DNA of 56,792 nt from a virus (Duplodnaviria; Caudoviricetes): positions 1 through 56,792 of IMG/VR virus record IMGVR_UViG_3300049043_000103; one strand, 5' to 3'. The notes under the pieces are model-generated. The model saw only the letters and a list, made by a program, of their open reading frames with translations. It was not told where the DNA came from and ran no database searches. This document shows positions 3,744-56,792 of this stretch, one piece after another. The translations under genes and the position numbers were made by a program. Positions within the stretch are counted from its first letter, which is position 1, and every line of letters begins with the position of its first letter.

Positions 3744-4249
3744 CTCTTACCCGTTCTAGCGATAGGATATTTTGGCTTTTTTAGTGGGCGTCCAGCTGGC
3801 TGTGACGCTTACGACGATTGCTTTTGTCCTGTGTCTGATCGTTGAGATGTGCCTTCACTTTGATCTGGTTATCGGGGAGTCCTGACGCCTAAAGTAACTG
3901 ACCTGCTCGAATGCGGCGAACTCCGCCTTTGCGCGGAGCTACGACTGGTACTACGCCGAGCTGATCTTTCGAGATTCCAGCCGGTGAGATTCAGATGATC
4001 CAGTCTAGAGAAACAACCATTGAGGAGACGCTCGAAGAACTCAGGAGCGAACTGAGGCGGCTGGCAAGCGTCTAAGTCTTCGCCGTGGTCGCAGTTCCTC
4101 GCAGTACCCGATAACCCACAACCCCGCTTCTCCGGACTGATACTCCGCCCGCCACACTTGCCGCACTTGGCGGGTGGCTTGCGCCTGCTCCCAAGGCCGA
4201 TGAGTTTTCGCGCGTTCGCTCGCAGCCTTACGCCGCTCTGGAGTCCAAC

Positions 4250-5909
4250 TCAAAGCCCGGTCCCGATTACTTGGTAGGTAAGATAACAGCGGCAATTTGA
4301 ACTGATTACGCCGTTTCCAATATAGTATATCGTCTCTAAAGTTTGGAAGTCATAAACACGGATGGAACCATGAGAAGAAGAGATAGGGTTAATGTCAATC
4401 TTGACGACTTGCTTAGTCGATATCATCGAGGCGAAAGCGTTCTGAGTATGAGTAAGTGCTTGGCATTAGCCGAATGACGCTGACAAAGCGACTGGCTAGA
4501 TTGGGCCTCAAGGTCCGCAACGGAACCGAGGCTAATCTTATTCGTATGGCGAAATTGTCCAAGGAGGAACGCCTCGCGATCACGGATGCTGCTCACGCCG
4601 CCGTCAGAGGAAAGCCCCATAGCTTCGCCCAGAGATGCAATATGGCGGCTGGTAGAGAGCGAACCTGTCGCATTGCTTCCGAGTATGAATCGATGATGAT
4701 CGGCTGGCTTACTGAAGCCGGTATCGAGGTTATACCTCAAAAGGCTGTTGGGCCTTACAATGTTGATATCGCCCTGCCCGAAAGCTGCATCGCCGTGGAG
4801 ATATTCGGGGGACACTGGCACGCTACAGGAACCCACGCCGCTCGATACCGCAAGAGAACGGAAGACCTCCTTGGCTGTGGGTGGCTTCCATTTATTATCT
4901 GGGCTGGTTGCTGCGGATTCCACCGCGTTTGCGCTGAGCAAGTGATCGCCTTGCATGAGGTTAATCGCTCGAACAAATCCCCAAGGACTCAAGAGCATGT
5001 GATTAGGGGTGACGGCAAAACTACTCCCGTCGCAAAGGTGAACCCTAACAATGGAACCCTTGTACTCAACGTCAAGAGCGGAAACAAGCGACGATCCACT
5101 AATGGGCGTTTCTGCTAGGACGCAATTCGGATGAGCCGGGGGACCACCCTCGGATTTATCCTCCCAGAATCGTTGATTCTTCCCGTCGAGCGGCCCGCAG
5201 ATTTCGCAAACCTTCTCATCTCGCTGAGTGTGCCAGACCCTCAGCAGTTTGAGATCCGCCATCGGTTCTACGCGGTGGCTTTCTCCGCCCGGTTGATTCA
5301 GGCGCTTGTCCGGTTCCCTTCCTGCCCGCCGAAGGTTCCGCCGTCCCTCTGGTTCTTCGCCTTCGGCTACTTCATCGTCCCCGAGTATCTCCCGGCGCCG
5401 CTGGATATCTCCCGCTCCAGCTCTCGCGTCGTGGCGTTCTCACCCGCCGAGATGGCTCGCGTAGTCTCGGTAACGCTCACCGATTCCGGGAACTTCTCGC
5501 CCCAGAGTAGATACAGGTAAGCCCCCAACGCTAATTCTCCCGAGCGGACCTGTCTTACGCGGTCGCCGACTTGAGTTTGTAACTTGGTTAGAATCGACTC
5601 GGCTACCATCGTGGCTTGGTTATCAATCCGCCGGTTAATCTCCGAAGCTATCCCGATGGCGTTCAAGTCCCAGCCCAACTCGTCGCCAGTCCTGATTGCC
5701 GCTTCAAAGGCGATATCCTTGAGTATCGGGCTGATCTCCGTCTTGATTAACTGCTTGGCTTGAGCGTAGAACCACTGGGGCAAATCATCCATCATCGGCC
5801 TATCACCGAGCCGGGAAAGTGCTGCTTGCTCAAGGTCAATCAGCAGTGCCGCACGATCACCGCTTGGAGCTTGGCTTCGTTGTCTAATCGCTTGGGGTTC
5901 GTCTGGCAT
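4250..5909 (-). CDS. MuF/SPP1 gp7-like head morphogenesis protein containing an intein
   Basis: SVTETTRA...RVWHTQRDEKVCEICGPLDG...PPAHPN|intein|CRCYLTY; sits after the portal; frameshifted. Confidence 0.88.
4297..4326 (+). promoter_or_regulatory. Putative promoter for the antisense endonuclease, inside the last intein codons
   Basis: TTGAAC(4297-4302)-N18-TATAGT(4321-4326), about 44 nt before ATG 4370. Confidence 0.5.
4370..5118 (+). CDS. HTH + DUF559/Vsr-like PD-(D/E)xK endonuclease encoded antisense within the intein
   Basis: N-terminal HTH (YHRGESVLSMSKVLGISRMTLTKRL), then SEYE...IPQKAVGPYNVDIALPESCIAVEIFGGHWH...RTEDLLGCGWLPFIIW. Confidence 0.82.
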
Positions 5910-8900
5910 TACTTGCCCTTTTCCGCTTGATTGTACCGCTCGATTTCTTCCTTGTCGCGGACTTTTTCCTAGACGCTTTGGGTTTAGGTGCGGCCTTGGT
6001 AACGTCCTTTGATTCTTCCCGAGAACTCGCCAGAGTTCCGGTTCTGACTTTGCCTGATTACCTTCTTTGACTAGCCAAGAATCGTGAGCTCCCCACCGTC
6101 CGGCGCGATATCCACAAACACTACCGAATCATATCCGCGCTCAAACGCCTTGGCCTGAATACCCTTGTTCCTCTGAGGAAGTTATAGAGAGCCTTCCCGT
6201 CATACTGCGATTCAACTTCATACCGCGCCTTCTCGTCAAGAGATTCCCAAGACTCATCAAGCAAACCGGCTTGGTGCATTGAATCCCACAACTCGCCAAC
6301 ATCGCCAACATCGGAGCCATACTCTCGCAGGTTTAGCGGATTTACCGAGCGAACCCATAGCGAATCAACCTTGCCTTCCGCGTCTGGAATCTCAAACCCG
6401 TTAGCGTCCGCTATTTCCTTTATTCGCTCCGGCCCTAAATCGGTATAGCTTTCCGCTCCATCCTTTGCCATTACGTCCGAAACAATTTCCTCAAGTTCGG
6501 GATTATCACTGATTGCTCGCTCTACTGCTTTTAGTTCCGCGTAACGGGTTGCCATTGCTGGATTGTCGGTAACAAATATCCCGTCCACTTCCGAGCGGTA
6601 ATCCTCCTGCGCCGTGGTACATTACCAACGGCTCGCCGTTCTCGTCTACCACCTTGGAGCCCTTGAACCACTCAGCGAAATTCTTGGCTGTCTTTTCGTC
6701 CTTGAATTTCTCCTTAGCCCAGCTCAAGACCTTATCCCCTCCGCTCTCCGCTCCCCCTCCATCCTCCTTGCCACAGGTGTTGCCGGGCTGGAAGCCGCCT
6801 CCGCCCTCAGCGTTGGCGCCAGTCTGAGCCGGATTTGGATACTTCCTCTGATGCCGCGAGCATCTCTTCTTTAGTAGGCCACGGAAGCCGATACAATGGC
6901 TCAAACTCATCGACTTTGCCGGGAAAAGGCTGTGTCATAATAACCACTCCCTTTGCTTTCGCCTTAATTGTTCTACCCAGTCAGGAAAACTGCTTGGCTT
7001 ATATCTTGTATCTGTAGTTACAGCAAACAACTCACAAAATGTCTCCTTTGGCGTTTTTTGTTGCGTAGGTTGTTAGCCCTTTACCAACGTCCTTGACCGA
7101 ATAAACTAAACCGCTCCATTCCCTTTGCTGCTCAACGGTCAGCCTACCATAAAGTTTATGGGCGTATTCGTGCCTAATGACTGCCGAGTAACCACCCATC
7201 CCGCCAGCAGTAGCCTTTCCGGGCTTTAATTCGTCGGTTCCTTCACCTTTCCAAAACGGCGAATCAAAAACGTGAATCCCTCCACGGTATTCAGCGGCTG
7301 GGCTCCGCCCCTTCTCTTGGCGTCTGTAAATAATAGGAGATTCTCCATGAGCTTTTACAAACTCTTGAAATTCTGCGTTAGCGTCATTCTGTTTTACGGC
7401 TTCGCGTATAACGTCTTCCCAGTTCCGGATTTAACTCGGAAAACGCTGCTTTATCGCCTTCGTTTAACTTGCGACTGCGAAACACCTTCATCCAGTTTTT
7501 CTTTAACTCTTCTTCGCTTGGAACCTCTCCGCCAAGCCTGTCCTGTTGTTTCATTTTCTCGGCCCATACAATCACTTCCTTAGCAATTGCGTCAGCGGCC
7601 TCCTTGGCGTTCGTAATTACACAACCTGACGAACCCGACTCACCTCCCGCCCCGTCCCCACGGGCGAAGCTATTTCCCGGTTGAAAACCTCCGCCACCTT
7701 CCGCATTTGCGCCACATCCCAAGCCACTCTTGTAGATGTTCGTATTCGACGGGTCAAACGTGCCTTGATTGTCTACGGACTTGATTTGAGTTGGATTCCA
7801 CGCAACGTAAATAGTTCCACCAGCCTCGCCGCGACCACCGTATCCATCAGCAACTACGCCATCAAATCCAGTTGCCTTGGTGACAGCATCAAAAACAATC
7901 GATTTACTACCTGACGCATTTGCAAGCTCCGCAATCTGATCAACCGCTTTCTCGTTACCTGATCCGATTATGGAAACTACTTCTCGGATTGCCGCTTTCC
8001 TGTTCGTTGAATATGTGTCAACGTAGTTGGAGAGAAATCCATCCTTGTAGTCTGATATTTCATCCGGGTATTTTGCAATCTCAGCATCAACCATCTCGCT
8101 AACAATACTTGTCAACTGTTCTTCAGTGAAATTCTTTTGATTTACTGAAAGCGGCTTTTCCATTCTTACATAAAGCTCGGCAAGCGATCCGGAGTCTTGC
8201 GGCTTATATCCGCTCGCTGTCTCTTTGTCTGTAGTCAGGTAAAACCCATAACCTTCAGGCGCTTGCGTTTTCCCCAATCTTGCTTGGGTCAAAAGCAAAG
8301 TTACTAGACATATCCGCCTTTGAGCCGTGATAAACAACCACTGGATTTCCGTCCTGATCTACTGCCTTTGACTCTCCAAACCAATCAGCGAACGCCTTAG
8401 CCTTAGCCTCATCCCCGAACTTATCCTGAGCCCAAGCTAGAATCCCGCCCTTTTTTTGGCCTTCAGTTTCTTTCCTTTGCTGGCCTTCTGCTCTCCGCCC
8501 TCTCCCGAGCCGTCTCCCCTCGCAGCGTCTTCCCAGCTTGGAATCCACCACCACCCTGCCGCATTCGCCCCGCAGCCGCTACCGCTCTTTCCCTCGCCTG
8601 CGATGATCCCCGCTGCCCAGTTGATACCGGAGTCTCCACCCCAGCCAAGCCACGCCACGTAGCCAGCATCGCGCCACGGCTCAGCGCGGAACTTGGGATC
8701 TACCTTAGAGTTCTTCCGATGACGCGCAAACGCTGCCATCCGGCCCACCGTCTCACGGCTCACCTTCTTGCCGCTGGCGAGCTGTCTGGCCCGAGCCCAG
8801 CCCGTAGCCGTCATCCCCGTTACCGCATCCCCATGCTCACGCTTCCAGCGGAGAACCTTTCGAGCGTTGGATTGTGCCGAGACTGGAGGCCGGTATCCGT

Positions 8901-11785
8901 CCGAGCCAGCGCTCTTGGTAATGTTCGGGTCTTTCGGATCGAACTTCCCTGAGTTGCCAGTAGCGGACTTGATTTGAGTGGGCTTAAACGTCACGTAAAC
9001 ATCGTGAGTTCGCTGCTCTTGTCCGGCTGGGGTGTCGATTATATTTCTAATAATCAACCCATCGTGACCACCCTCCCGAGCGGCCTTGATTGCTTTGAAA
9101 TTAACAGAAATCCACCATTCCCCCTTTGCGTCGAACTCTAAAGGGTTATTCATACTGAGGTATACGTGCATTGGCTCGCGCTCACCGCCTGAATACCCGC
9201 GCCCCATCTCTCTATCAGCAGTAAACCACGAAGCACCAACCTCCTCCCGGAACTGCGCCGAGTGACGCGAGCGACCAGCGAACTCGTTAAATCGCGCAGC
9301 GGTACCGTGGTACACTACCAGCGGGTTCCCCTCCTCATCCACTACCTTCGAGTCACCGAACCACTCCGCGAAGTTCCGCGCCGTCTCCTCATCCTTGAAC
9401 TTCTCTTTCGCCCACGCGAGTACCTTCTCGCTTACCTTTGGGGCGTCTCCGCCCTGAGACTCCCCCGCGCTACCGTCTCGCTTTCCACAAGTGTTCCCGG
9501 GTTGGAATCCCCCGCCCCCTTGAGCATTGGCGCCGCAAGAGTCAGCGGCTTTAGAATAAGTCTTTTTCTCTTATCCAATCAACATCCCCCGAATAACACG
9601 CGCATCTAAGTAGTTCCACAGCTCGGGAAACGTATTTCTTAGAATCGGCTGTCCAAAGTGGACTGCTGACATTCCAGCCGCAAATACTTCTTTCCGGTCA
9701 TTTCCCTTTTTTGAGAAATAGTCCTGACTATGGCCGTAAACGTCTTTCTTTCCTCCTCACGCGGCATTGATTACCATATCTAGGTTCTGTATCGCAATCC
9801 TGCCACTAGCCCCCTTCTTGGCTTTTTTCTTCAACTCAGCAATAAACGAATCGTCAAGCGCTCGGCTCGCTTTTTAGTTGCCTCAAATACACTTACAAAC
9901 TCTTGAGAATCAGTTACGTTATTTCCGTCTGACGGAGACTTTGCATTATCAAATGCGAATCGGTCAATGTGGTGAGTGTATTCGTGAACAAAGTAATTCT
10001 CTAAGGTTGTCGGGTCGTTGTCTGGGTCGAGAAAAATCGTAAACATTTGGTAACTAACGCCCGGCCCGGCTCTATTCGGGTCTATCTTCACGCGAGGCGG
10101 CTCTATCTTTCCCTTGAACGATTCAGGCAGAGAATCCATTCAGTTTCGATACAATGGCTTCGTTTTCTACTGAGCCTCCACCCTCTCCGCGTCCACAATC
10201 ATTACCGGGCTGAAACCCTCCACCTCCGGGAGCATTCGCCGCAGTCCGAACCGCTCTTGAATAGCGACGATATCCTATCCTCAAACGCCGCTAAAGCCTT
10301 CGCTACGGCTTCCTCTGCGATTTGCTCAGGTGTCTTGACTGGTTGGGCGGGCTGACTCGGATCGAGCGCCTGCGGGCCTGTCTGGGGCTTCTGTACGTCT
10401 AATCCCGGAACCCCTTGCGGGAGCCCCGGTAATCCTCCCGGCCCCTCCTGCTTTGGCGCCTGACCGGCTACCGCTTTGCCCTTCTCCCCACCCCACGGCT
10501 TACGCCCTCGGAGCTTGCGGATCTCGTCTACCTCAATCGCACCCGCTGCGATGTCGGTGTTGATTTGCTGTTCGGTCAGCTTCGCATCGTCGATAGCCTT
10601 TGCCGTGTAGAATACCGTCAGCCCCTCACCGAACTGAGTAGCGAGCTGCTCGGTGTCTTCCTCCGCCATTAAATCCAGAATCGGCTGGACCGTCCCTTGG
10701 ATGAACTGCTTGAGCGGCCGCATAGAGCCCGTCATCCCCGCTAGGCGCTTCGATACCCGCTGCGATAGGCGTTACACCATGCAGCGCCATAATCGCGTCC
10801 CGGAACTGAGCAAACGCCCCCTCATAGGCCATCTCGGCAGGGGTCCGCGTGACCGGCTCTACCTTGACGTTCTGGCCGTTCACGAACATCGCCTTTCCGT
10901 GCTTGGCTGGCCCGGCGTACTTCTCGTTGAACTTCGCGCTCATGGCCGCTGGAGTGTCGATTCGTCCTCTACCCCATCGATCCCAATCGATCACCGAGGG
11001 GTCTGAACCGTTCCGCAAGTGAGCGTGGCGGGATACGTCAATCTTCTCGCTCGTGTCAGTCCAGAGCGCAGCCGGCACTCACCGGACTCTGCCCCTCATC
11101 CTTGAATACCGGATGAATGAACCGGATAACCTGAATATCTCTCGCGTCGATCACCTTGCCGATAGCCTGAGCCAATCCCGTGTCAAGGAACCAGCCGCTC
11201 TCAATCTGCCAACGGGCTACCTCTGGGTTAATGTACCAGCCGCCCTTGGGAAGTCCCCGCTCGGGCTGTCGAGGTTCGGCAATCGCCGTCGGGATCACGT
11301 ACCGCTCTACCGTCCGGCCCATCTGATTAGGCACGTTCCAGAATCAGAGCGCTCCCTGTTAGGCAAAGCTGGATTGCTACCTCCTCCCGGAAGCTCGCCC
11401 CGATTGGCTCGCACTAGGCCGCTTCAGGAGTTTCATTAACGGATGCCACTTCAGCAGCGGAACCGTATCGTCATCCTCCGCGTTGTAGGCCTTCGAGTAT
11501 TCTCTAACCTGCTCTTGATAGGCTTCCACGTCACAAGACCGGATCGCCTTCCCGATAGCCGAGATAGCCACGTAGTGCCAGCCAGCGTACTTCTCCGCTT
11601 CGGCCTTGTGATCGCTCGCCCAGTTTCCCGGCTTGCCCTGACTCATCAGCTCAGTCAGCCCGCCATAGGAACCGCCCACACTGGCGAACCGCTTCTCATC
11701 GCGCTCCTCAGTGACCCGTCAGCGGCCTCTGATTGCGATTGTCCATCTCCGCCATGATGCGAGCGATTTCTTCAGCCCTTGGCAT
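5909..11785 (-). CDS. Portal protein with a very long polyvalent C-terminal extension (3 ART-PolyVal-like, 2 HEXXH metallopeptidase-like and 1 uncharacterised domain); continuity inferred across indels
   Basis: Portal motifs (GWHYVAISAI, HPLMKLLKRP, IRFIHP, FRDAIMALHGV, VDEIRKLRG); then SKVVDE.G.PLV.YHG x3, HEYTH and HEYAH; ends in TAATG overlap with MuF. Confidence 0.75.
6767..10258 (-). repeat. Five dispersed peptide repeats K-[SA]-x3-CGANAxGGGGFQ[PA]G[NK]x[CF]
   Basis: Copies near 10195-10258, 9481-9553, 8520-8590, 7660-7732 and 6767-6838. Confidence 0.85.
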
Positions 11786-55434: not shown

Positions 55435-55896
55435 TTAGCTATTGAGAACCTTTTCGGTGTACTCACGCAGTGCCGCCTTGTATCTCTCCGGAATCTCTTT
55501 TGTCTGAGCCTTCAGACTTAGCCACCAGTAGCGTTGATTGATCGGATGAGACGGATTGAGTTTCGGAGCGTGGGAATCCGGATCTCCCTGCATTTCCTGC
55601 GTCACTGGGCAACCAGTGTTTACATCAAACAAAGGCTCCTGTTTCACCTCATCCCACATCCAAACCACAACGGTTGGGATCCCGCTCCTCTTGTCGCGGA
55701 GCCTCAACCTTCCGCCAGCTAAAATCCGCTGAGCCTCTTCGGCAAACGGCTGAGCGAGAGCGAATGCTTGCTTCGCCAATTCACCGAGTTGATAGCCCGG
55801 CTTTTGTGCCACAAGTTGCCGATAGATGTTTGCTGCTTCGCTAACCAAGATTTCCTGATTAGGTACAACGGACTTCGGTTCAAATTCTTTTGCCAT
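55435..55896 (-). CDS. Hypothetical protein
   Basis: GGAGG RBS, 153 aa. Confidence 0.65.
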   Translation of the reverse strand: MAKEFEPKSVVPNQEILVSEAANIYRQLVAQKPGYQLGELAKQAFALAQPFAEEAQRILAGGRLRLRDKRSGIPTVVVWMWDEVKQEPLFDVNTGCPVTQEMQGDPDSHAPKLNPSHPINQRYWWLSLKAQTKEIPERYKAALREYTEKVLNS

Positions 55897-55917
55897 GAAA
55901 TCGCCTCCGGTAAAGTG

Positions 55918-55963
55918 AAAAAAACGGGTGGCAAGGCGTTAATGGATTGCACCCTACCACCCG
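55918..55963 (-). terminator. Intrinsic terminator after the capsid/decoration genes
   Basis: CGGGTGG...CCACCCG followed by a T run. Confidence 0.6.
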
Positions 55964-55984
55964 CTGGGGAGTGAGAATCGAACT

Positions 55985-56514
55985 GGCTCAGCGCGGTGAG
56001 CGGGATGCTTCGGTTGTAGTTACCGCCAGCCAAGATCCAGTGAGAGTTAATCAGCAAAGCGTTAGCAACCTCTGCCCCATCCCACGAAGCCTGTACAAAA
56101 CAGAATCCGCCGTTGGTATCGAGTGCGTCCGCCATCACTTCAACGATTACTACCGCTGCGCTGGTGTCCGAAGCGATATCAGTCCCGCCAACGCTCACAA
56201 AGTCCAAGGACGGATGCCGGGCTTGCGCCCAAGTCAACGTATGTCCAAGTATTCTGCGAGGTCATCGTGCCGACCTTGTACCAAATCCGCTGAATCACGG
56301 TTGCAGCCTTTGAACTGCCGCCCGAGTTTGAAGTGGCTTGGTTGATAGTCAGCTTGAGATCGTCGCCTGCGGTTCCTGCTGGCTTAGTCAAAACCACGTA
56401 TCCGCGTTCGTAATTACGGAGCGAAATCCAGTCACCGTTGATTGTGCTATTGGCGTCCGTATTGATTTGGTCAGGAATGAAGTCCAGTCCCAACCCAAAA
56501 AAAGTTGCGTTCAT
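55985..56514 (-). CDS. Capsid decoration/auxiliary protein
   Basis: Directly after the capsid stop; NGDWISLRNY, IVEVMADALD..GGF.FV. Confidence 0.65.
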
Positions 56515-56531
56515 TAGTTCCCTTTCATGGA

Positions 56532-56792
56532 TTAAGAGCGAACGTCGAGAGTGACAAAGGCCGATTGAGTCGAGCTGCCCTTGTACGGAGTCAGCGGCGT
56601 ATCTTCCCACGGGCGAGCATCGCATCGCATCGTGAACTTGATAGCCATCTGGTTGGTCAGAAAAATGCAACGTGCATCGAGGCTTGTTGACTGATACCGC
56701 CCTTCGAGATGCTGAGTACCTTTGACAGGTCAGCAAGAACGATATCGCCTTGAGTTCCGAGCAATACGTAACTGAACGAAGAGCATCCGCAT
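56532..56792 (-). CDS. Major capsid protein, C-terminal part
   Basis: Frameshifted; ends TPYKGSSTQSAFVTLDVRS*, typical of this HK97 capsid subtype. Confidence 0.8.

Follow-up and report, generated by a model that had tools for sequence, protein, structure and literature searches.

The stretch of DNA analyzed here (56,792 nucleotides; Caudoviricetes; IMG/VR record IMGVR_UViG_3300049043_000103; hereafter the window) contains a MuF-type head gene that is interrupted by a class-1 intein. The opposite strand of the intein DNA encodes, in the same codon register, a helix-turn-helix (HTH) protein with a Vsr-type nuclease domain. The element is likely to be a mobile intein that has its splicing protein on one DNA strand and, in the same place on the other strand, the nuclease by which it spreads. 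We observed the two open reading frames (ORFs) and their register, frame-specific selection, the fold, conserved expression signals, and alleles with and without the intein, all in silico. The layout is of a kind that has already been described, and it is real and widespread. New here are the promoter, ribosome site, and start codon embedded in the intein codons, the constraint on two frames, and the spread beyond actinophages.

The intein and its host gene

The MuF (minor capsid/head morphogenesis) gene is on the minus strand and is read in three frame pieces (5367..5909, 4423..5262, and 4250..4426). The N-extein (5125..5909) takes up the first piece and 5125..5262 of the second, and ends with the conserved residues PPAHPN. 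These are followed in the ORF 4423..5262 by CVLAETP, where the intein begins. The ORF 4250..4426 holds VYDFQT and, further on, GVISSN followed directly by CRC. As read from the sequence, the C-extein (4250..4294) consists of C-R-C, 11 further residues, and the stop codon.

The intein occupies 4295..5124 of the minus strand. It starts with Cys1 (5124-5122) and ends with an Asn (4297-4295), and the Cys+1 codon (4294-4292) comes directly after it. Its 830 nt are 277 codons less one base. Cys1, the terminal Asn, and Cys+1 are the residues of a class-1 intein, and the first two are invariant in 30 aligned relatives. Splicing blocks B (T-P-N-H, 4999..5010), F (V-Y-D-F-Q-T, 4340..4357), and G (Y-Y-I-G-N-G-V-I-S-S-N, 4295..4327) are all present and are also conserved in the family. 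The residue before the final Asn is Ser and not His; family members end in S-S-N, V-K-N, or x-H-N. Many active inteins do not have a penultimate His. The intein shows the HINT fold, and removal of the in-frame insert restores the HPN and CRC motif, the window frame itself being off by one base.

The MuF/intein frame has only two Pfam matches, Phage_Mu_F (E 3.5e-4) and Intein_splicing (E 3.5e-3), and none to a LAGLIDADG or HNH domain. In PHROG, the middle piece of MuF matches phrog_15127 (“head protein”) over 250 residues with an E-value of 1.8e-12. The initial annotation of this DNA had placed an intein of ~277 amino acids with its splicing blocks at the HPN/CRC site and had seen no LAGLIDADG or HNH domain in its middle. 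Both observations held, and all of the elements lie where they had been placed.

An AlphaFold model of the intein from a related locus (L005) has pLDDT values below 50 at residues 134-161 and 178-224, and values of 76-91 at residues 83-133. The confidence at residues 83-133 may partly mirror covariation in the nuclease, and we do not take it as structural proof; independent support for the intein middle comes from the codon-level selection test described below. The stretch that is constrained in both frames may complete the HINT fold, or the model could echo covariation of the other strand.

The antisense nuclease gene

The plus-strand gene spans 4370..5118 and would encode ~250 amino acids when whole. 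In the window, it is broken at 4457/4458. The frame that starts with the ATG at 4370 stops at 4475-4477, and a second frame (4456..5118) carries on the same protein. In the closest relative (P0001), the gene is unbroken, 249 amino acids long, and 81% identical to the window nuclease. The TAG stop codon (5116-5118) is the complement of the codon for Leu3 of the intein, and the codon boundaries therefore coincide on both strands.

The HTH region (4430..4509) reads G-E-S-V-L-S-M-S-K and, after the break, L-G-I-S-R-M-T-L-T-K-R-L-A-R-L-G-L. From the window alone, it is matched by HTH_8 with an E-value of 0.029. Homologues have HTH_23, HTH_7, and HTH_38, and the profile of A1 matches the tandem-HTH protein 2lvs_A (E 2.2e-7). 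The Vsr/EDxHD-type nuclease domain follows at 4672..4971, with the invariant residues Asp104 (4765-4767), Glu115 (4798-4800), and Trp121-His122 (4816-4821). Its best Pfam match is PF18741 (REase_MTES_1575; E 2e-7; 31.5 bits, under the curated cut-off of 38.2), and this domain is carried by 31 of the 45 nuclease homologues found.

A model of the nuclease frame, derived from a 45-row alignment, has a mean pLDDT of 84.2 and a Vsr-type fold. The top matches of this model in Foldseek are Vsr and I-Bth0305I (probability 1.00; E 2-5e-3). The sequence identity to I-Bth0305I (3r3p) and Vsr (1cw0, 1vsr) is 16-21%. The Vsr of E. coli (1cw0, 1vsr) is a repair nickase. Arithmetic on the positions shows that the spacing of Asp104, Glu115, and Trp121-His122 matches that of Asp51, position 62, and Trp68-His69 in Vsr. 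An invariant Glu at position 62 is given for the Vsr-like homing family by Dassa 2009 (PMC2677866). The catalytic residues of this family further include an Asp at position 97 of Vsr. The results support an antisense gene that encodes a Vsr-type nuclease, separate from the intein, with no in-frame nuclease domain. The initial annotation had reached the same gene (ATG 4370 to TAG 5118, in exact register) and the same assignment (HTH plus Vsr-like nuclease) from motifs that we could locate again.

Selection on the two frames

Substitution positions were analyzed in a codon alignment of 50 distinct sequences, in pairs of 60-75% nucleotide identity. From 4456 to ~4930, differences peak at the third codon position of the nuclease frame (0.50 versus 0.37 at the first position), and amino-acid divergence is 0.45 in the nuclease frame versus 0.57 in the intein frame. 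Both patterns reverse toward the intein frame at 4936-5100.

In a synonymous-shuffle test on 44 sequences with less than 70% nucleotide identity, the protein of one frame and the codon usage of each sequence were held fixed. The test asks whether the other frame exceeds the conservation expected from shuffled synonymous codons. At 4456-4760, the nuclease frame has z values of 15 to 47 and the intein frame is at the null (−1.5 to 5). At 4762-4821, the values are 28 to 48 for the nuclease frame and ~30 for the intein frame; at 4822-4893, they are ~36 and 6 to 13, respectively. At 4939-5064, the nuclease frame has z values of 2.6 to 24 (16 to 24 at 4975-5028) and the intein frame has values of 20 to 44. 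The ~100 intein codons at 4456-4760 are a true shadow of the nuclease gene, and the regions of the nuclease core and block B serve both strands. The antisense “shadow” peptide put forward in the initial annotation fits these ~100 codons, where the intein frame is unconstrained, and does not fit 4762-4893, where both frames are constrained.

The clearest patch that is read on both strands is at 4789..4797. On the plus strand, it encodes (I/V)-A-V of the nuclease core, and on the minus strand, it encodes H-G-D (intein residues 110-112). Across the 44 sequences, the plus-strand codons are ATC (24) or GTC (20), GCC (42/44), and GTG (40/44), and the Asp on the minus strand is present in 44/44. At the neighboring invariant Gly, Glu, Tyr, and Asp of the nuclease, every synonymous codon is in use. 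Block B is the second patch, where the plus strand reads as the conserved (V/M)-I-(R/W)-G of the nuclease tail. Its minus-strand His is found in 44/44 sequences, Asn in 43/44, and Thr in 42/44. The Thr codon is ACC (GGT on the plus strand) in 38/44, Gly185 of the nuclease is present in 40/44, and both frames exceed the synonymous-shuffle null here.

Expression signals within intein codons

A promoter-like site, TTGAAC-N18-TATAGT, is located on the plus strand at 4297..4326, inside the block G codons, and has 9 of 12 consensus matches. A scan of the window from 3900 to 5600 gave three such sites versus 1.0 ± 1.1 in shuffles. This promoter is weak when taken alone; its homologues in related loci make the case strong. 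A sigma-70-type site was found in 21 of 34 loci, compared to 6% of control windows. Nineteen of the 21 are at the same place, with the −10 element ending 26-29 nt before the start codon, and 10 are a perfect TTGACA-N17/18-TATAAT (12/12). The window site is a degenerate homologue of this family sequence. It had been noted in the initial annotation, and the family makes it a far stronger candidate than the single sequence did.

Read by eye, the alignment assigns the −35 element to the codons of (L/V)-Ser(TCA)-Ser(AGY) that precede the final Asn, and the −10 element to those of Leu(TTA)-Tyr in block G. Inteins ending in V-K-N (three loci) keep TTGACA in two cases and have TTTACA in the third. The promoter scan required a −35 match and missed the loci ending in x-H-N. 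In this subfamily, TATAAT is seen by eye 3 nt after the complement of His-Asn in 6 of 16 rows. These six are all of the x-H-N rows that have Ile-Ile at this place, coded ATT-ATA, and four of them have TG one base before TATAAT.

The start of the nuclease gene is also fixed relative to the intein. An ATG, GTG, or TTG with a Shine-Dalgarno-like motif is found 60 or 63 nt from the intein end in 23 of the 33 loci with a resolved end. The start codon is complementary to the codon of the His that precedes block F (CAT in 19 and CAC in 3 of 22), and the Shine-Dalgarno motif is the complement of the Asp-Leu codons of block F, with Leu as CTC in 24/27 (34 loci examined). The resulting plus-strand signal is TGGAGGTC-N8-ATG or GTG. 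In the window, block F gives a weakened form of this site (TGGAAGTC), and the start codon at 4370 is five codons upstream of the family position, as it is in P0001.

On antisense RNA, a metatranscriptome contig from the public run X2 (4304-4533) is uninformative: it carries no strand and begins upstream of the predicted transcript start. A GC-rich hairpin of seven pairs with a T-rich tail is present on the plus strand at 5136-5153, 18 nt past the nuclease stop codon and inside N-extein codons. It could terminate an antisense transcript, although one such site does not exceed the shuffle expectation of 1.5.

Distribution and alleles

Searches with tblastn matched the nuclease frame to 129 phage records and the intein frame to 104, chiefly of Salmonella (Jersey-like), Gordonia, Pseudomonas, Klebsiella, and Escherichia phages. 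An annotated head/MuF coding sequence is on the opposite strand in all three nuclease-frame matches inspected. The record of Escherichia phage Snoke annotates a 273-residue intein in the MuF gene. In Salmonella phage vB_StyS-sam, ORF43 (“hypothetical protein”; L002:1640-2041) is the antisense nuclease ORF called in truncated form. The other three phage records inspected have nothing annotated at this ORF, and the whole antisense ORF is annotated in none of the four. Unannotated nuclease genes are probably hidden in several hundred “head morphogenesis” genes of phages.

A first set of 60 loci was made up of 56 IMG/VR loci and four phage stretches. In 60/60, the nuclease ORF is covered by a minus-strand ORF in register 0, at GC contents from 0.34 to 0.70; across this range, family members are 29-51% identical. 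A second IMG/VR scan gave 80 loci; 48 of them have no DNA in common with the first set, which brings the IMG/VR total to 104. The antisense nuclease match is present in 80/80, and the sense ORF covers the whole of the match in 76. In three of the exceptions, the antisense ORF outruns the sense ORF, and in one (L133), both frames are broken. The peptide pattern used in the second scan mirrors the nuclease core, which biases the sample of MuF inteins, and we drew no estimate of nuclease decay from it. The check on homologues proposed in the initial annotation came out in its favor: the antisense ORF stays open in 60/60 loci and the nuclease frame is under purifying selection (z 15-47).

In the exteins of the genes in the 60-locus set, codons that give a stop on the other strand (TTA, CTA, and TCA) make up 0.6-8.4% of the total. 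Such codons are absent inside the nuclease ORF by construction, so that only the extein frequency is informative. The intein ends could be resolved in 41 of the 60 loci. These inteins are 270-330 amino acids long and are always inserted between N and C of H-x-N-C-(R)-C; the C-terminal tail that follows them has 8-16 residues in 32 of these 41 loci. In related loci, the nuclease stop codon lies between 4 codons before and 21 codons after Cys1. MuF proteins that are very different from one another have the intein at the same site. One IMG/VR contig contains, in addition to its intein locus (L009), a weaker second Vsr-like match (L072:73-939; E 2e-15), which is antisense in the same MuF/polyvalent ORF and upstream of the intein. 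It may mark another double-coded element in one gene.

Alleles with and without the intein are found among close relatives. The MuF gene of vB_StyS-sam is matched by 349 Jersey-like records, 58 of which cover at least 80% of it; among the matches listed, most of the other Jersey-like records match in two pieces covering 52-58% of MuF. The MuF of phage Jersey has no intein and reads AHPNCRSS. In vB_StyS-sam, the intein is inserted precisely between N and C, and the exteins are 92% identical to those of Jersey. The Jersey-like exteins with presence/absence alleles are 86-95% identical.

Proposed mechanism

Transcription of the element, its timing, cleavage, homing, and splicing are predicted from sequence. 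The MuF precursor would be translated straight through the class-1 intein set between Asn and Cys of H-P-N-C-R-C. Residues 1-65, the last ~50, and probably ~77-125 make up the HINT parts, which would fold and splice the intein out. Between these parts, ~100 residues would form an unconstrained linker, which is the antisense of the plus-strand nuclease gene. The product of this gene is predicted to join a DNA-binding HTH region to a Vsr/EDxHD-type nuclease like I-Bth0305I, and to be expressed from a putative sigma-70 promoter in the block G codons and a candidate Shine-Dalgarno site and start codon in the block F codons. With its own sigma-70 promoter, the nuclease could be made by the host RNA polymerase independently of the late head-gene transcript. 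Most likely, it would cut intein-less MuF alleles of co-infecting relatives, and repair would copy the element in (homing). Comparison among relatives largely backs the mechanism suggested in the initial annotation.

More tentatively, the element may be old and obligately double-coded as a unit, its two strands co-adapted codon by codon. We regard this as possible but somewhat doubtful. Three codons give both part of the catalytic strand of the nuclease and the invariant H-G-D of the intein, and block B doubles as the Gly-rich tail motif. The Ser-Ser-Asn end and the Leu and His codons at block F would be dictated by the promoter, the Shine-Dalgarno site, and the start codon on the other strand. 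If this is true, the expression signals of the nuclease could not be lost without harm to splicing, and vice versa. It would also explain why phages of very different hosts keep the intein and the nuclease together.

Several points weigh against a mobile intein of this kind. The PF18741 match of the window lies under the curated cut-off, and the Foldseek E-values are above 0.001. The window promoter and its Shine-Dalgarno site (TGGAAGTC) are weaker than the family consensus. The X2 contig comes from an RNA library and could be MuF mRNA or DNA. For every member considered, cleavage and splicing are predictions from sequence. The seeds of both scans came from the nuclease frame or the two-strand patch, and decayed copies are under-sampled. 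A 2025 preprint (bioRxiv 10.1101/2025.01.02.630785) judged most VSR-like cases to be vertically inherited or singletons. Finally, this copy may be dead, given that both of its frames are broken in the window.

The break in the window copy and alternative readings

A single missing base at 4457..4458 accounts for the breaks in both reading frames. In tblastn searches with intact relatives, the minus-strand frame switches at 4459-4465 and the plus-strand frame switches between 4456 and 4458. The X2 contig is 231 nt long, covers 4304-4533, and is 99% alike with one other letter different. It has G instead of T at 4457 and one extra base behind it, which restores both frames. The one-base explanation given in the initial annotation is thus borne out by the switch positions and by this contig. 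Run X3 has no contig that aligns to the window.

The alternative with most weight accepts the family as described and takes the window copy as a true pseudogene, in which a one-base deletion killed both MuF/intein and nuclease in a decaying or defective phage. We find this unlikely, though well short of negligible. It would fit the double break at 4457/4458 and a second MuF break between the first two pieces, near 5262-5367, where a contig of a relative (X4; less than 90% alike, N-extein only) is without one base at 5266. It would also fit the related IMG/VR locus L133, where the antisense nuclease ORF and the sense ORF are both broken in the same region as in the window. Against it, the X2 contig has the extra base, and the rest of the nuclease frame is without stop codons or decay. 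Breaks, the second one in MuF among them, are spread over the whole contig, as expected of an indel-prone assembly: the largest ORF in 56.8 kb is 488 amino acids, and many successive ORFs overlap in different frames. Examples of overlapping same-strand ORFs in different frames are at 6121-6910, 10202-11078, and 55435-56736. The pattern of overlaps suggests many indel errors in the contig. A noisy purine repeat is also present at its start; positions 1-540 are only A and G (GC 0.26; GC skew 0.73) and form a degenerate tandem repeat of AAGAAGAATAA-like units. It may be a terminal repeat that was read noisily or an assembly artefact. On balance, the one-base break is probably an assembly indel and not the mark of a dead copy.

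A second alternative is that the antisense gene is expressed but is past homing. It would exclude or degrade competing phage genomes, or its strong promoter would mainly tune MuF by antisense RNA. The arrangement is old and co-adapted, as seen from the constraint on two frames and the identity of 29-51% across GC contents of 0.34-0.70. A perfect consensus promoter that faces into the late operon would yield antisense RNA, and the vertical inheritance or singleton status of most VSR-like cases in the 2025 preprint would agree with such a role. The precise presence/absence alleles among the 86-95% identical Jersey-like exteins and the recurrence of the insertion site in very different MuF proteins argue for homing. 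The nearest structural relative besides Vsr, I-Bth0305I, is a proven homing enzyme. We consider this second alternative improbable.

It is scarcely credible that the plus-strand ORF is a chance “shadow” ORF and the intein middle a real domain that was not recognized. Long same-register shadow ORFs do occur opposite other genes in GC-rich loci, and the intein-frame residues 83-133 have pLDDT values of 76-91. However, the ORF is open even at GC contents of 0.34-0.41, and at 4456-4760 it is the intein frame that is at the shuffle null and the nuclease frame that has z values of 15-47. The confident Vsr-like fold, the PF18741 domain in 31/45 homologues, and the conserved promoter, Shine-Dalgarno site, and start codon also contradict it, and this reading was rejected on register, selection, fold, and promoter. 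An equally remote reading, a “fractured gene” in which the intein is split and a nuclease gene stands free between the MuF halves, takes its appeal from the shared nuclease family (Dassa 2009, PMC2677866) and from the interrupted MuF frame of the window, and was rejected: the interruption is a single-base shift and not a stop and restart, the sense frame runs unbroken across the nuclease gene in 60/60 loci and covers it whole in 76/80, the nuclease gene is antisense, and in the fractured genes described there, the 3′ end of the nuclease gene overlaps the start of the downstream half.

Surroundings of the MuF gene

Upstream of MuF, two adjacent minus-strand ORFs (7387-9342) each have an ART-PolyVal domain (E 1.3e-13 and 1.3e-20). 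By its domain annotation, ART-PolyVal is an ADP-ribosyltransferase found in polyvalent proteins of phages. The MuF ORF reaches 900-990 amino acids in several related loci. The window MuF may be the tail of one large polyvalent protein that is split by frame shifts. In the X4 contig, 86 nt of the MuF N-extein at 5319-5406 are swapped for 85 unrelated letters, which suggests that the MuF domain has a variable segment immediately upstream of it. A tRNA search of the 56,792-nt window found none, and the source genome record consists of this single contig.

Significance and comparison with known systems

An intein is usually taught as an in-frame fusion of a splicing domain and a homing nuclease. 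Here, the two products are on opposite strands, and timing and dosage would thereby also be separated, with a host-type promoter for the nuclease and the late head operon for the intein. The family is a concrete intermediate for the model of intein origin in which the splicing domain comes first and the nuclease invades later. Its members occur in easily handled phages (Escherichia phage Snoke and Jersey-like Salmonella phages) with natural intein-less sister alleles, which make homing, timing, and splicing directly testable. With promoter, ribosome site, and catalytic motifs co-encoded with splicing blocks, it also offers clean natural antisense overlapping genes under two-sided selection.

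The initial annotation knew of no description of this layout, and on this point it is contradicted by the literature. The 2025 preprint (bioRxiv 10.1101/2025.01.02.630785) describes full inteins with an “anti-sense VSR-like HEN” in actinophages and reports that inteins of minor capsid proteins carry only non-canonical endonucleases. It traces antisense LAGLIDADG inteins to Gorbalenya 1998 and Gogarten 2002. This was the only literature found that joins intein, VSR-like, and anti-sense. The present family has the same arrangement, a contiguous intein with an antisense VSR-like ORF inside it (contiguous in relatives, and one base short in the window). The VSR-like cases of the preprint probably lie in minor capsid proteins, and the terms “promoter”, “ribosom”, and “synonymous” have no occurrences in its main text. 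The preprint surveyed PhagesDB only, whereas the present family also occurs in phages of Salmonella, Escherichia, and Pseudomonas and at 104 IMG/VR loci. Set against the cases in the preprint, as described there, the ORF of the present family runs antisense through the N-terminal splicing domain, to between −4 and +21 codons of Cys1, and both frames are under constraint in two patches.

The fractured genes of Dassa 2009 (PMC2677866) are similar in that they have the same nuclease family, are mostly from phages, and place an endonuclease gene with its own control elements in an intein. As described in that paper, the host gene and intein are split into two ORFs, and the nuclease is co-oriented and has T4-late-type promoter hairpins. 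In the present family, by contrast, the intein is one ORF, the nuclease is antisense, and the promoter is of the sigma-70 type. According to the same paper, I-Bth0305I (PDB ID: 3r3p) is encoded in a group I intron. Antisense or out-of-frame LAGLIDADG genes in inteins (Synechocystis dnaX; Gorbalenya 1998; Gogarten 2002) are a further likeness, since there, too, the nuclease is in another reading frame of the intein DNA. The report on the dnaX intein (10.64898/2026.09.14.751524) gives purifying selection on the nuclease frame and relaxed selection on the overlapping intein frame. The dnaX case differs, as described in that report, in its LAGLIDADG nuclease, its cellular host, and the position of the nuclease in the +2 frame of the same strand.

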